Of a stretch of DNA of 64,000 nucleotides, positions 373 through 4,651 are shown piece after piece. Under the pieces are notes generated by a model. The model searched no databases. It worked only from the letters and a program-made list of their open reading frames with translations, and was not told where the DNA came from. This stretch comes from an uncultured virus (IMG/VR IMGVR_UViG_3300031758_009234) (taxonomy: Duplodnaviria; Heunggongvirae; Uroviricota; Caudoviricetes), in the IMG/VR virus record IMGVR_UViG_3300031758_009234, positions 1 through 64,000 of that record, one strand, 5' to 3'. Numbering within the stretch: the first letter of the stretch is position 1; every line of letters begins with the position of its first letter. Made by a program: the position numbers and the translations under genes.

Positions 373-693
373 ATGAGAAAAATTTATTATTTATTTGATT
401 TAGTTGATTTATTTTCAAATGAAAATATTTTTGAAAATAAAATGAATTATCCAAAAGATGGTGATAAAAATTGGAACAAAACAACAGAAGAATTTGAATC
501 TAATGGAATGACTATTAAAAAAGAAACTTGGGTTAGCCTGGATGGAACATCAACGTATGTTAAAACATACACTGAAAACAAAAAGAGTATTGATGTCAAA
601 GAGCTTGAATCCGCTTTAAAAATAGCAGTTGAAAAAGAAGAATATGAAAAAGCTGCTGAACTTCGTGACCAAATTAAGAAGTTGAAGAAATAA
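373..693 (+). CDS. UvrB/UvrC (UVR) coiled-coil motif protein
   Basis: C-terminal ALKIAVEKEEYEKAAELRDQIKKL is a UVR motif; true start may be 442. Confidence 0.75.
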   Translation: MRKIYYLFDLVDLFSNENIFENKMNYPKDGDKNWNKTTEEFESNGMTIKKETWVSLDGTSTYVKTYTENKKSIDVKELESALKIAVEKEEYEKAAELRDQIKKLKK

Positions 694-724
694 AAAAAAG
701 ACCTCAAAATTGAGGTCTTTTTTA
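693..724. terminator. bidirectional intrinsic terminator
   Basis: AAAAAAAGACCTC-AAAATT-GAGGTCTTTTTT between convergent units. Confidence 0.8.
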
Positions 725-815
725 TTTTAAAAACACTATTCTGTGTTTGGGCCATCCAATATTGGATTTGACTCCACCACCTTATTTTTCTAAATAAGGA
801 AAATATGAAAGAAGA
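700..815 (-). ncRNA. candidate small structured RNA containing sequence complementary to tmRNA-like ends
   Basis: No convincing ORF; own AAAC-N18-TATAA promoter (822-848, minus) and a terminator; hairpins CCTTATTT/AAATAAGG and ATCCAATATTGGAT; plus strand reads GGGCC..TGGATTTGAC-TCCACCA. Confidence 0.4.
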
Positions 816-850
816 TATTAATTATAAATTCTTTTTGTAGAAAAGTTTTA

Positions 851-1027
851 TTATTTATCACCTTTTTCTTCTTCAACTGAAGCCGCTCTATAAGGAGTAG
901 CTAACTTCTTAATTTCACCAATGAATTTTCTTGCTTCACCAGCGTTTTTCTTAAATTTACCATTATGAGCTGCGTCAAATTTTTCCCATAAATCTTTTAA
1001 TTGTTCATAAACTTCTTGTTTTGACAT
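851..1027 (-). CDS. histone H1-like (Hc1-type, Bacteroidota-like) small protein
   Basis: Not in the ORF track; 58 aa MSKQEVYEQLKDLWEKFDAAHNGKFKKNAGEARKFIGEIKKLATPYRAASVEEEKGDK, resembling the Hc1 pattern K-AGxxARK...E(I/L)xK...(F/Y)RxxS. Confidence 0.65.
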   Translation of the reverse strand: MSKQEVYEQLKDLWEKFDAAHNGKFKKNAGEARKFIGEIKKLATPYRAASVEEEKGDK

Positions 1028-1071: not shown

Positions 1072-2295
1072 TTATTCAAATAGATCCGCTGCATCACTAT
1101 CAACATATCCATCATTATCATCATCATCTCCACCCATTACTTCATTGAACTGTTTTTCAACCTCTTCAATTTCATCCAATGATTTGAATCTGAAATAATC
1201 ATTAACAATTGGTGCCATTTTTTCTAAAACATCTTGTGTAAACACCTCTTGAGTAAATAATTGTTTTGTTGTAACTGATTTCCCTAAGTGAGAAATATAC
1301 CAACGGTTTCCACCAGGAACAAACTTAATCTCACCAGTTGATTTATCAACTTCTTCTTTACCTTTTGCGATACCAATTTGTTCAAAGAATTCTGGACGAC
1401 AAAATGCGTCTAAGCCAGTGTAAGGATTCATACCATGAATAAAAGATATATCAAATCTAATTTTCTTAGGTTTTGCCAATCTATTTTTTTGAGTTTTGAA
1501 AAGTACTGTAATACCGGAAGCACCTAAATCCATTTCATCCTCTTCAGAAGTTTTTAATTTACTTTTTGACATAAATCCAATTACAGATGCTGAATAAAGT
1601 AGACCATTACCTCCGCGGAGTCGCTCTTGTGGAAAAAGATCCATTGTTAGATATGTATGGTTTGCCACCAAAAGTGGAATTTCTAAGTAACCCAAGTCTG
1701 TATTTATACTTCTAAACATAGAACCAAGTGCTTTAGCTTTAGTCATATCTTGTTTAATATCACCTTTTAATAAATCTTCTTTTTCTTTATTTGAAGCCAT
1801 TTGTCCCAAAGAATCTAAAACAATCATCAATTTAGGCATCTCATAACCAGCTAGTTTTTGTTCTTTTAACTCATCTATCAATTTTGTTAAAGTTATGTTC
1901 ACGTCTTCTACTTTATTAGATCTAACTAATCTAAATTTATCTAAAGAGTTATCAATTCCAAATTTTGGTAAGTCTTCTAAATCAATAGCCTGTTCAGTAT
2001 CAATGTATATTACTGAATATCCTAATTTCTGAGCTTGTTTAGCACATGAGTAACAAAGAAAGCTCTTACCAGCACCTGATTCACCAGCAAACGCAGTTAT
2101 TCTATTTGTAGCAATACCACCCCCTAATAATCTACCAGATAAAGCAGCATCTAATAAATAAACACCAGTTGTTATAAATTGTTTTTCTTTAATTTCTTTT
2201 TCTACTAAAATTGGAACTGATTTTGCAATATTATCTAATATTGATCCAACTTTACTAAACTCAAATTTCTTCGTTTCTTTTCCTTGTTTTGCCAT
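1072..2295 (-). CDS. uvsX: UvsX/RecA-like recombinase
   Basis: Walker A GESGAGKS, YIDTE, Walker B IVLDSLG, NHTY, GGNGLLYSAS. Confidence 0.92.
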   Translation of the reverse strand: MAKQGKETKKFEFSKVGSILDNIAKSVPILVEKEIKEKQFITTGVYLLDAALSGRLLGGGIATNRITAFAGESGAGKSFLCYSCAKQAQKLGYSVIYIDTEQAIDLEDLPKFGIDNSLDKFRLVRSNKVEDVNITLTKLIDELKEQKLAGYEMPKLMIVLDSLGQMASNKEKEDLLKGDIKQDMTKAKALGSMFRSINTDLGYLEIPLLVANHTYLTMDLFPQERLRGGNGLLYSASVIGFMSKSKLKTSEEDEMDLGASGITVLFKTQKNRLAKPKKIRFDISFIHGMNPYTGLDAFCRPEFFEQIGIAKGKEEVDKSTGEIKFVPGGNRWYISHLGKSVTTKQLFTQEVFTQDVLEKMAPIVNDYFRFKSLDEIEEVEKQFNEVMGGDDDDNDGYVDSDAADLFE

Positions 2296-2412: not shown

Positions 2413-3462
2413 ATGACTAGGGAAGAATTTTTAGAAAGAGCACGTGATAAGCATGGATATAAATATGAATATCCAAATTTGAAAGATAAAGTATTATCAA
2501 CTGATGATATAGATATAATCTATAACGGTGAACTATATAGACAAAAAGTTGTTAAGCACATAACATTGGGTCGTTGTCCAGAGAAAAATACACCAACAAA
2601 AACCACCGAGCAATTTATTAAAGAAGCTAAAGAAGTTTGGGGTGATAAATATGATTATTCATTAGTAAAATATAAGGGAGCTCTTAAAAAGGTTAAGATA
2701 ATATATGATGGTCTTATATTTGAACAGGTCGCTATTTCTCATTTACAGGGACAATGTTGTGAAAAAAATTTAACCAAAGATAATTTTATAAGAAAATCAA
2801 TAAATAAACATGGTGATAAATACGATTATTCTATGGTTAAATATATATCAGGTGATATTCCTGTTTTAATAGGATATAAAGGTGTGTATTATTTACAAAA
2901 ACCATATAATCACATAGGTGGTTCTAAACCAGAGAATATTGAATTATCAGTAAGAAAGACAACTAAAAAGTTTATACAAGAGGCTAATTTAGTTCATGAT
3001 TTTAAGTTTAGTTATGATAAAACTGATTATGTTAAGAATCAGATTAAGGTTATAATTACTTGTCCTATACATGGTGATTTTAATCAAACTCCACTTTCAC
3101 ATTTACAGGGTAATGGTTGCCCTAGTTGTAGTGAATCTCGTGGTGAAAAGTTAATTTCTAAATATTTGGATAAGAATGATATTTCATATTATAGACAGCA
3201 TAAGTTTCCTGATTGTAAGAATATATTTCAATTACCATTTGATTTTTATTTACCGAAATACAGAACTATAATAGAGTTTGATGGTAAACAACATTATGAG
3301 CCGATTGAACATTTTGGTGGTTTAGAGGCTTATGAGCGTTTAAAGGTGAATGATAAGATTAAGAATGATTATTGTGAGGATAATTATATTAATATAATAA
3401 GAATTAGATATGATCAGATTGATCGTATTTATTATATATTAAATGAGAGTTTAAGATTATAA
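2413..3462 (+). CDS. putative homing endonuclease (repeated HG(D/Y)KYDYS DNA-binding units plus a C-terminal PD-(D/E)xK/DUF559-like nuclease)
   Basis: Repeats FIKEAKEVWGDKYDYS, CPIHGDF..GCPSC, PFDFYLP..IEFDGKQH. Confidence 0.8.
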   Translation: MTREEFLERARDKHGYKYEYPNLKDKVLSTDDIDIIYNGELYRQKVVKHITLGRCPEKNTPTKTTEQFIKEAKEVWGDKYDYSLVKYKGALKKVKIIYDGLIFEQVAISHLQGQCCEKNLTKDNFIRKSINKHGDKYDYSMVKYISGDIPVLIGYKGVYYLQKPYNHIGGSKPENIELSVRKTTKKFIQEANLVHDFKFSYDKTDYVKNQIKVIITCPIHGDFNQTPLSHLQGNGCPSCSESRGEKLISKYLDKNDISYYRQHKFPDCKNIFQLPFDFYLPKYRTIIEFDGKQHYEPIEHFGGLEAYERLKVNDKIKNDYCEDNYINIIRIRYDQIDRIYYILNESLRL

Positions 3463-3879
3463 ACTAATACATACACAATAGTAATCATATCCTTGATGAC
3501 CTCTTAATAAAGGTTGTTCATACAAAACTTCCACTTTATAATTAGGATATTCGTCTTTTAGGTTATTTATAGCACCTTCCAATTTAAGAAGGAATTCATT
3601 TGTTATTTTATTAAATTCAATAAAGTCGGATATTTCTCCTTTATATCCATCTGCTGTGAATTTCACTTCTAACTCAGGACAATTTATAAATACTCTACAA
3701 TCTGTTGGGTTTCCACTTTCGGTTACTTCTTCAAGTGTTTCTGAATTGCCCCAACGGAATTCACCACATTCATTATCTTCATTATATGAATATTCCACTA
3801 AATCAGTGAAACAATGTTTGATATACTCAACATCAATTGAATTATCGGTATTTTCGTTAAATTTTCTTAGGTGTTTCAT
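3457..3879 (-). CDS. hypothetical protein, MKHLRKFNE-leader family
   Basis: N-terminus MKHLRKFNEN; paralog of 4259-4651 (YIKHCF, LKDEYPNY). Confidence 0.75.
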   Translation of the reverse strand: MKHLRKFNENTDNSIDVEYIKHCFTDLVEYSYNEDNECGEFRWGNSETLEEVTESGNPTDCRVFINCPELEVKFTADGYKGEISDFIEFNKITNEFLLKLEGAINNLKDEYPNYKVEVLYEQPLLRGHQGYDYYCVCISL

Positions 3880-4262
3880 ACTTTATATTCAATATTTATT
3901 TTTAACTCACCAATTCTATTTACAATGAAGTTAACTTCATTTCCTTCACTTTCTATATCTTTAATTATGGCGTTTATACTATTAAGTGTTTCTTGTTTAA
4001 TTCTTAATATTTCCATCTCATTTTCAATTGACGCTTTTAAAAAACCAGCATTTCCATATGGTGATCTATTCCATAATTTACCTTCAACAGGTTCCAATTT
4101 AACTTCAACATAAACACATTGAACACCTTCCACTCTTATTGGTTTTGCTATCAAAATATTAACATTATAGTAACCACTCTCTGAGATATCAGCAAAAAGT
4201 GTTTCTAGATATGATTTAGTTTCATCTTCAAAACTTTCATTAAATTTTCTTAGGTGTTTCAT
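3876..4262 (-). CDS. hypothetical protein, MKHLRKFNE-leader family
   Basis: N-terminus MKHLRKFNES; ATGA overlaps with both neighbours. Confidence 0.75.
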   Translation of the reverse strand: MKHLRKFNESFEDETKSYLETLFADISESGYYNVNILIAKPIRVEGVQCVYVEVKLEPVEGKLWNRSPYGNAGFLKASIENEMEILRIKQETLNSINAIIKDIESEGNEVNFIVNRIGELKINIEYKV

Positions 4263-4651
4263 TTTTTATTATTTATATTTATCTGGAAGTAGTCATTTGG
4301 TCTATCATCATCCTCTTCGTAATTTATTTCAATATTATAATTAGGATATTCATCTTTTAATCTTTTGATTGAGATATCAATTGATTTAATAATATGTGAT
4401 ATTCTTTCAGAATTACCAATCATTCTTTCAAAAGTTCCACCCTTAGTTATTCTAGGGATATCTATGGTTAAATCAACATATTCGTCATTAAGTGTGATTT
4501 CATCGTTTGGATTATCACGTAGATAATCTTCATGTGTATCATATTCTACATCACATTCTGGATCATCTGATAAGTCATTAAAACAATGTTTGATATATTC
4601 TATATCAAGATGCTCATTTATACTTTCGTTAAACTTTCTTAGGTGTTTCAT
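4259..4651 (-). CDS. hypothetical protein, MKHLRKFNE-leader family
   Basis: N-terminus MKHLRKFNES. Confidence 0.75.
   Translation of the reverse strand: MKHLRKFNESINEHLDIEYIKHCFNDLSDDPECDVEYDTHEDYLRDNPNDEITLNDEYVDLTIDIPRITKGGTFERMIGNSERISHIIKSIDISIKRLKDEYPNYNIEINYEEDDDRPNDYFQININNKK

Follow-up and report, generated by a model that had tools for sequence, protein, structure and literature searches.

A conserved RNA module of giant water-borne phages with complementarity to the ends of tmRNA

We analysed a 64,000-nucleotide (nt) stretch of DNA from an uncultured virus of the class Caudoviricetes (IMG/VR record IMGVR_UViG_3300031758_009234, positions 1 to 64,000), hereafter the window, which is part of a 76.9-kb huge-phage fragment estimated to be 29% complete. 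Its minus strand holds one copy of an RNA module that is a conserved single-copy RNA family in giant water-borne phages, known from well over 150 distinct phage and metagenome sequences. The typical home of this module is the 3' trailer of a phage transfer-messenger RNA (tmRNA) gene, and in the window it is the 3' untranslated region (UTR) of a small, weakly histone-like gene. The sequence and the gene neighbourhood point to tmRNA as the sole partner, and the function for which the module was selected is probably pairing with the tmRNA end, in cis or in trans. Our preferred reading, to which we assign a probability of roughly 0.45, is that an RNA derived from a trailer or 3' UTR pairs with the acceptor end of tmRNA, in cis within the tmRNA precursor (pre-tmRNA) and in trans on a tmRNA in the case of the window phage.

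Architecture, strand and distribution of the module

Read along the window minus strand, the family has the order UUU, a first hairpin (P1), the linker UGGUGGA, a second hairpin (P2), an A-rich spacer, a GC-rich terminator hairpin and a U-run. The window copy occupies the 157-nt gap between two convergent open reading frames (ORFs), 373..693 (+) and 851..1027 (-), and its parts, as given below, all lie on the minus strand. The UUU directly 5' of P1 (800..802) is invariant, alignment columns 3-5 being constant in 77/77 distinct members. P1 (780..799; CCUUAUUU-AGAA-AAAUAAGG) is a hairpin of 8 bp with a 4-nt loop, AT-rich in the window, for which 616 of 616 alignment cells were paired; its consensus over the 77 distinct copies aligned is CCUU(R)UUU-NNNN-AAA(Y)AAGG. 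The linker (773..779, from alignment and fold) is the exact complement of the tmRNA 3' terminus UCCACCA, and its first 3-4 nt were unpaired in predicted folds. It reads UGGUGGA in 73 of the 77 distinct copies, UGGUGGU in two and UGGUGGC in two. The first-pass annotation of this DNA had named two anti-tmRNA segments as the parts that homologs should conserve; UGGUGGA proved to be the most conserved piece, whereas GUCAAAUCC was not conserved, P2 being variable.

In the window P2 was placed at 748..776 by the predicted fold (UGGAGUCAAAUCCAAUAUUGGAUGGCCCA); its family consensus is TGTCGGCCC, with the 3'-end consensus UGUCGGCCC. Both P2 and the terminator were judged from single-sequence folds. The intrinsic terminator of the window copy (694..723; core GACCUC/GAGGUC, 13 pairs, with an eight-U run on the minus strand) is strong and two-way, serving the convergent plus-strand ORF 373..693 as well. 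Among the members inspected, P1 begins 3-13 nt past a stop codon, a tmRNA or a tRNA, with the terminator after P2, and the module always ends a transcription unit.

Judged from the aligned relatives, the functional strand is the window minus strand, fixed by G·U covariation in P1 and by UUCG terminator loops. Pair 10-21 of P1 was GC in 34 copies, GU in 26 and AU in 17, and the closing pair 6-25 was CG in 74, AU in two and UA in one, both sides changing three times. On the plus strand P1 would carry A.C mismatches in 26 of the 77 copies, and no reverse wobble intermediate was seen in P1, also in the hairpin-anchored scan described below. The terminator loops of relatives read C(UUCG)G, their long U-runs lie on the minus strand, and the minus-strand fold was the more stable one in 44 of 47. 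The minus-strand orientation that had been proposed from the window is borne out by these wobble pairs, loops and U-runs of the family. The strand call rests on the family because P2 alone is ambiguous and because both strands of the window itself fold equally well (z -4.99 and -5.80).

To describe the distribution, we used several searches that differed in their anchor. Loci around 44 relatives of the recombinase gene that lies near the element in the window (proteins 64-100% identical, two of them from near-identical copies of the window's own phage) yielded the hairpin in 17 cases (up to 3 mismatches, within 3 kb), each with TCCACCA before it; the other 27 had no hairpin match in the sequence searched. 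About 25 positions did not vary between phages that share only 64-87% identity in the neighbouring recombinase. Scanned by pattern, IMG/VR returned 71 contigs with one copy apiece, including contigs of 436-483 kb, and five large genomes of the window clade (186-635 kb), three of them 95-98% complete, had exactly one copy each even when 3 mismatches were allowed. Dispersed or tRNA-linked repeats were rejected on these counts of one copy per genome and per contig. IMG/VR labels two of the large genomes (G002 and G003; 436 and 476 kb) 'provirus', despite their completeness of 95-97% as phage genomes.

A second scan used the hairpin alone as its anchor and took no account of TCCACCA or of the variable hairpin pair. 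Among the 118 matches listed, TCCACCA preceded 82, ACCACCA or GCCACCA with the same build preceded 9, and 27 were unrelated chance matches, so that the full build was present in 91. A scan of metagenomes recovered at least 105 distinct copies, at least 88 of them new, with lake, river and marine samples included. In bacterial and archaeal genomes (one per species, 185,579 species) there were 8 pattern matches, none with the build of the module and all appearing to sit inside long ORFs; the module is therefore phage-specific as far as that exact pattern is concerned.

Neighbouring tmRNA genes, complementarity and transcripts

The position of the module ties it to trans-translation. Among the 105 metagenome copies listed, 16 start 3-13 nt past a tmRNA 3' end, three more lie 80-193 nt past a tmRNA, four have tRNA genes within about 420 nt upstream, one has tRNA genes only further upstream and one has too short a flank; the remaining 80 mostly follow ORFs, with P1 a few nt past the stop codon. 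Viral neighbours were tallied over 69 distinct loci with 2.5-kb flanks, and 13 of them have an SmpB gene (Pfam 156 bits) on the same strand at a distance of 1.5-2.2 kb upstream. Loci L137 and L171 have a phage tmRNA (Rfam 99.3 bits) 148 nt upstream of the element on the same strand. At L131 an intron-split phage tmRNA ends 11 nt before the invariant UUU and 14 nt before P1, so that the module is there the 3' trailer and terminator of the pre-tmRNA. At L132 a tmRNA of this kind has a terminator of its own, and an HNH endonuclease gene separates that terminator from the module. Given that only one of the hundreds of genes of a phage encodes tmRNA, the place of the module beside it is not a matter of chance. 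The linkage to tmRNA and smpB had no part in how the element was first noticed or selected, and the connection to trans-translation suggested from the window alone thus gains independent support.

The intron-split tmRNA genes of these two loci (L131:1866-2489 and L132, minus strand, about 3747-3139; tag ANATVGHFVTEGAEVVA) have a group I intron in the T-loop and were missed by both ARAGORN and the Rfam tmRNA model. In 44 of the 69 viral loci (within L124-L241; for example L125, -429..-153 relative to P1), the gene for a member of a family of proteins of 91-93 amino acids (aa) without a Pfam or PHROG match (…FKLFLKM…FFNG…HIPY…SKIEALVT) is found upstream of the module and on its strand, and it often follows smpB and an unknown protein of 246-291 aa.

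All five large clade genomes (G001-G004 and LR745206.1) encode SmpB (loci L250-L254, E about 1e-52), and no tmRNA was found in them by the Rfam model, a BLAST search with a related phage tmRNA, two permuted models or a search for T-loop introns, which makes SmpB an orphan there. The permuted models were RF01849 and RF01851; a two-piece permuted tmRNA was rejected, with 0 of 5 related large genomes matching them and the window giving no Rfam match. Sub-threshold matches to the tmRNA model in the large genomes were mostly in tRNA arrays. The best of these (31 bits), at L245:1501-1631 (G003:C1:221075-221205), is a tRNA-like gene inside a phage tRNA array with a GGGGATG acceptor, normal D- and T-arms and an insert of about 57 nt, and was not called by ARAGORN. 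Neither tmRNA nor smpB was found in the window's own fragment; in a near-identical 186-kb contig, smpB lies 117 kb from the element.

Complementarity was evaluated against a panel of 52 tmRNAs from genomes of the phylum holding a Flavobacterium genome (Bacteroidota). All 52 end in UCCA(CCA), of which UGGUGGA is the exact complement, and the 3' half of the P2 consensus, GUCGGCCC, pairs with nt 2-9 of 5' ends of the GGGG-YY-GAC type (including GGGGUCGAC and GGGGCCGAC) when wobble is allowed. Runs were contiguous with G.U allowed, the score was the best over the 52 panel tmRNAs, and the shuffles kept base composition only. Runs of at least 12 nt anchored at tmRNA nt 1-2 were present in 15 of 78 elements (shuffles: mean 1.34, maximum 6, 100 rounds), and runs of at least 9 nt in 40 of 78, a length reached by 17% of shuffled values. 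Runs anchored at the 3' end were at least 13 nt long in 12 of 78 elements (shuffles: mean 0.58, maximum 4) and at least 10 nt long in 31 of 78 (mean 10.7, maximum 17). At 20 nt, the best run at the 5' end was that between the L024 element and one panel tmRNA. The complementarity to both tmRNA ends that the first-pass annotation had described was recovered in this way, the linker matching the 3' end and the 3' half of the element the 5' ends. In members with such long likeness (e.g. L024), no pairing is possible between the 5' and 3' parts of the plus strand, which argues against a plus-strand mini-tmRNA and for an antisense reading.

The 5' half of the window's own P2 extends the complementarity to the tmRNA 3' strand to 10 nt overall. 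Its 3'-terminal GGCCC is complementary to tmRNA nt 2-6, and GUCAAAUCCAA to about nt 10-20; GUCAAAUCCAA is also the exact complement of UUGGAUUUGAC in several phage tmRNAs. The earlier caveat that such short matches might be due to chance holds for the window alone, since the 16-mer GGATTTGACTCCACCA (up to 3 mismatches) is expected 0.39 times in the window and found a match in 31 of 100 shuffles. It does not hold for the relatives, which supply all the evidence that the likeness is more than chance.

Cofolds with full mature tmRNAs kept P1 and the terminator, and the linker and P2 paired with nt 1-20 and the last 7-14 nt. The net gain for four family members was -31.3, -29.2, -19.3 and -16.9 kcal/mol; shuffled linker and P2 gave mean gains of -1.3 to -2.0, and 0 of 25 shuffles reached the observed value in each of four tests. 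For the window copy the gain was -12.6 with L271, -12.7 with L270 and -12.3 with the tmRNA of phage L137, values that 0 of 25 shuffles reached; it was -6.5 with a third panel tmRNA, and with phage tmRNAs it ranged from -9.9 to -12.6. These near-equal predicted gains do not decide whether a host or a phage tmRNA is its better partner. When the whole element was compared with the whole phage tmRNA by RNAduplex, which permits huge loops, 97% of shuffles were as good. An A.C opposition at the G3.U70 position was present in 11 of the 21 elements with an uninterrupted lower stem, of 78 in total.

In copies adjacent to a tmRNA, UCCACCA was predicted to pair with UGGUGGA in cis and so to extend P1 (6 of 6 folded). 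The predicted hairpin consists of 7 bp, a bulge of 6-8 nt and 8 bp (-11.6 to -18.3 kcal/mol), which means that the same seven nt would meet the tmRNA end within the precursor.

In the RNA libraries of four metatranscriptome studies, contigs run from the upstream ORF into P1 and UGGUGGA, and one of 201 nt spans window positions 761-961 with a single mismatch. Being unstranded, they show presence and continuity only. From the continuity of ORF and module, ORF 851..1027 probably supplies the transcript of the module. The first-pass annotation had assigned the element a promoter of its own, AAAC-N18-TATAA (848-822), which was not among the 18 sites predicted in a scan for sigma-70-like promoters (18.3 expected by chance). 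The proposed promoter falls in a 58-nt spacer in place of which the RNA contig of a relative has 14 other letters, and since the RNA contigs join the element to the upstream ORF, no promoter of its own is indicated. All four contigs that cover P1 (X16-X19) end 9-17 nt past UGGUGGA, inside P2; these stops could mark a real RNA end or an assembly break beside a 31-nt block common to co-occurring strains. They carry no weight here, and neither do the parts of 300-2400 over which no contig lies.

Proposed pairing with tmRNA and rival explanations

In the mechanism that we propose, the free ACCA tail of tmRNA would be the toehold for UGGU, which is stacked on P1; the duplex would then invade the acceptor stem, and the 3' half of P2 would capture the 5' strand of the tmRNA as it is released. 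Within a pre-tmRNA the identical pairing would form in cis. In the window phage, for which no phage tmRNA was found, the module would act in trans on the tmRNA of the host or of another phage; its persistence in unchanged form where the tmRNA gene is missing implies that a partner in trans is needed. Alanyl-tRNA synthetase needs the CCA end and the G3.U70 helix. Both would be hidden by the pairing, charging would probably be blocked, and trans-translation would consequently be off or delayed. The data show the conservation, the strand, the single copy, the position beside tmRNA and smpB and the complementarity; the release of a separate small RNA, its pairing in cells and any inhibitory effect are inferred. 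That the module truly antagonises host trans-translation seems to us doubtful, and so, to the same degree, is the bolder form of the proposal, namely that a phage anti-tmRNA, which would be the first natural RNA to antagonise trans-translation, pries open the acceptor stem and clamps both strands. Synthetic antisense oligonucleotides to tmRNA are reported to cut in-vitro trans-translation by more than 95% and to discriminate between two tmRNA variants (PMC7038980).

Several results weigh against our preferred reading. The extended complementarity is found in a minority of elements, the typical 5' run being about 9 nt. Panel scores are the best of 52, shuffles match composition only, and the counts are non-independent because the members are related. 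Panel tmRNAs stood in for that of the true host, and the window element pairs about equally with tmRNAs of the host and of the phage type. In 7 of 7 cognate pairs the phage's own tmRNA is matched over exactly 7 nt of its 3' end and over 3-8 nt of its 5' end, no covariation of P2 with the neighbouring phage tmRNA was found, and in three viral cognate pairs the duplex energy was not clearly better than that of shuffles. Copies linked and not linked to a tmRNA have the same complementarity to the panel, and the idea that tmRNA-less phages evolved a longer antisense was dropped on that account. Three of the seven seed nt must compete with a stable acceptor stem, and the retention of smpB in all five large relatives fits poorly with a plain shutdown of trans-translation. 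P2 taken alone favoured the minus strand in 50 cases and the plus strand in 28 (n=78), and the RNA contigs, besides being unstranded, have unmapped ends and may contain DNA.

The module might instead be purely a cis-acting trailer of pre-tmRNA or pre-tRNA, one that terminates the transcript and holds its 3' end in a bulged hairpin guiding or timing processing, and that survives in tmRNA-less phages as a terminator and 3'-end stabiliser for the upstream gene. Such a role would account for the 16 of 105 listed metagenome copies that start 3-13 nt past a tmRNA end, for the cis hairpin predicted in every folded case (6/6, -11.6 to -18.3 kcal/mol), for cognate 3' complementarity that halts at exactly 7 nt in 7 of 7 pairs and for a module that always closes a transcription unit. 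We nevertheless regard it as unlikely, because 80 of the 105 listed metagenome copies and most viral copies follow protein genes without an upstream UCCACCA, UGGUGGA and both P1 arms stay invariant even there, the five large genomes without a detectable tmRNA keep one exact copy each, and a hairpin for 3' processing does not require a 5'-end complementarity of up to 20 nt. The module could also be a relic or a selfish cassette assembled from copies of tmRNA gene ends, akin to tRNA-linked repeats and spreading as a compact mobile terminator with no pairing function. This would be in keeping with an antisense strand that reads as a tmRNA 5' end fused to a tmRNA 3' end, with the many different genes that precede the module, and with the HNH endonuclease gene between tmRNA and element at L132 and the group I introns in neighbouring tmRNAs. 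This origin is improbable given a strictly single copy, about 25 invariant positions beside recombinases only 64-87% identical, compensatory and wobble changes in P1, and no copy found in the bacterial genomes scanned, a pattern that decaying relics do not keep.

A further candidate is a different ligand for the invariant part: a phage or host protein that recognises UUU-P1-UGGUGG, the CCACCA ends of tRNAs (the 3' ends of any tRNA with G1G2 and A73) or the 16S anti-Shine-Dalgarno sequence. Both P1 arms are fixed in sequence beyond what pairing demands, suggesting sequence-specific recognition; 44 of 69 loci have the 91-93 aa family, unmatched in Pfam and PHROG, on the upstream side, linker position 7 varies in 4 of 77 copies, and AAGGUGGUG, read by eye, resembles a Shine-Dalgarno site with one mismatch. 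To this we attach a low probability, as it leaves the position behind tmRNA genes and the complementarity of P2 to the 5' end unexplained and no downstream ORF start is conserved. The first-pass annotation had also considered an SmpB decoy, which needs the plus strand and is disfavoured by the family evidence. A mini acceptor helix on that strand (GGGCC...UCCACCA, with G3.U70 and CCA), acting as a decoy of SmpB or alanyl-tRNA synthetase, could draw on the likeness of the plus strand to a tmRNA 5' end joined to a 3' end, on the 28 of 78 P2 that fold better there and on the five large relatives that have SmpB without a detectable tmRNA. It is very improbable all the same: P1 would have A.C mismatches in 26 of 77 copies, terminators and U-runs face the opposite way, the members with the longest likeness (L024) cannot form the acceptor stem, there is no T-arm and no match by ARAGORN or Rfam, and the flanking genes leave neither room for nor sign of a plus-strand promoter.

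The window locus and comparison with known RNAs

Within the window, the plus-strand motif GGGCCATCCAATATTGGATTTGACTCCACCA occurs once, at 749-779; the sequence reported by the first-pass annotation is real, but its coordinates (748-778) were off by one base. The CCTTATTT/AAATAAGG hairpin and the terminator that it listed are present at 780-799 and 694-723. Its GC-rich island could not be upheld, for the GC content at 700-789 (0.33-0.37) equals that of flanking coding DNA and exceeds only the adjacent spacers (0.17-0.22). Between P2 and the terminator, a small extra hairpin AACAC...GUGUU is predicted at 732..747 (-); it is specific to the window lineage and was not present in the other family members inspected. 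The lineage-specific spacer at 803..850 (-) is the 3' UTR between the stop codon of ORF 851..1027 and the module; in relatives P1 begins 3-10 nt past a stop codon, or past a tmRNA or tRNA. The spacer contains, on the plus strand, an 11-codon ORF (MKEDINYKFFL, 805-840) that starts 5 nt past P1 behind AAGGA and is absent from relatives.

The product of ORF 851..1027 (-), of 58 aa, is weakly Hc1 histone-like (Pfam Hc1 20.9 bits, under the 23.5 cut-off), and the convergent ORF 373..693 (+) encodes 106 aa with a UVR motif (PF02151, 40.2 bits). The UvsX-like recombinase gene lies further upstream on the minus strand (1072..2295). Elsewhere in the window, three tandem paralogous ORFs at 3457-4651 (-) encode 140, 128 and 130 aa, each starting MKHLRKFNE, and their stop and start codons overlap. 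Within an ORF of 349 aa at 2413-3462 (+), a (H)GDKY(D/E)Y-type module is repeated three times, and the C-terminal part of this ORF resembles, by eye only, a small endonuclease domain. The closest database relatives of the window are uncultured phages of 634-642 kb. These GenBank phages gave no alignment over 700-850 at the syntenic place, and two of them carry the element slightly further off. Genomes of more than 634 kb are predicted, in the huge-phage survey that is their source, to replicate in Bacteroidetes (PMC7162821).

Searches for known RNA classes gave no assignment. ARAGORN called no tRNA or tmRNA gene in the window, Rfam 15 gave no RNA family at the element, either with the gathering threshold or, for 600-1000, with E values up to 10, and both programs returned nothing at the element in 45+46+11 related loci. 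Low-scoring Rfam matches were to leader and terminator models and were due to the terminator. Identity with a standard tmRNA (RF00023 and the ARAGORN model) was rejected, the element being about 31 nt long, without T-arm or tag and without a model match. A T-box riboswitch was likewise rejected, with no Rfam match, a position downstream of genes, and P2 and terminator that do not overlap. Compared with phage attP sites (sequence only), in which a block identical to just the 3' part of tmRNA would be expected, the element also bears likeness to a tmRNA 5' end, and its middle part is variable, neither of which suits an attP.

The closest known kind is the small RNA (sRNA) cut from a 3' trailer or 3' UTR, an example of which is the 3' external transcribed spacer of the E. 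coli glyW-cysT-leuZ operon. The module resembles these RNAs in lying at the end of a stable-RNA or mRNA unit, in sharing its intrinsic terminator and in having a conserved single-stranded segment between hairpins: UGGUGGA is kept, partly unpaired and complementary to the UCCACCA of 52 of 52 tmRNAs. It differs in its presumed partner, the tmRNA acceptor end, and in being phage-encoded, and its processing is only putative. The UGGN discriminator of T-boxes, stacked on a helix, base-pairs with the NCCA at the 3' end of a tRNA, and the UGGU of the module likewise adjoins a helix, can pair with ACCA-3' and precedes a terminator; the module, however, has no specifier domain and no antiterminator/terminator switch and sits at the 3' end of genes, not in a leader. 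Retroviral primer-binding sites start with TGG and complement a tRNA 3' end including CCA, much as the TGG-starting stretch of the module complements the 3' end of a tRNA-like RNA. Priming from them needs no complementarity to the 5' end of the partner, whereas the module also complements that end, and no reverse transcriptase lies near it.

The synthetic anti-tmRNA oligonucleotides share with the module an antisense pairing with tmRNA, which for the module is predicted; they are man-made DNA, whereas the module is a natural structured RNA that would be aimed at both strands of the acceptor stem (PMC7038980). The tmRNA and SmpB genes listed for huge phages concern the same phage group and the same pathway, and the accessible part of that survey describes no RNA complementary to tmRNA (PMC7162821). 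A literature search, covering sources in part, turned up no natural RNA complementary to tmRNA ends, and the family is not in Rfam 15. Base-pairing RNAs that stem from transcript 3' ends are a known kind; new are the partner, the design as a clamp on two strands and the association with phage tmRNA genes.

tmRNA and SmpB form the main ribosome-rescue system of bacteria and are a candidate antibiotic target. The family described here, hitherto unannotated and carried by uncultured giant phages of lakes, rivers and the sea, could now be recognised by genome annotators, and through its tie to tmRNA and smpB it offers a concrete way to test what trans-translation genes do for huge phages. The family also illustrates how the acceptor stem of a stable RNA might be hit by strand invasion. 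If the proposed antagonism were true, giant phages could silence the ribosome-rescue RNA of their host or of a rival phage, and would themselves supply SmpB and, in many lineages, a tmRNA that the clamp would match only at its 7 terminal nt and a few 5' G's.

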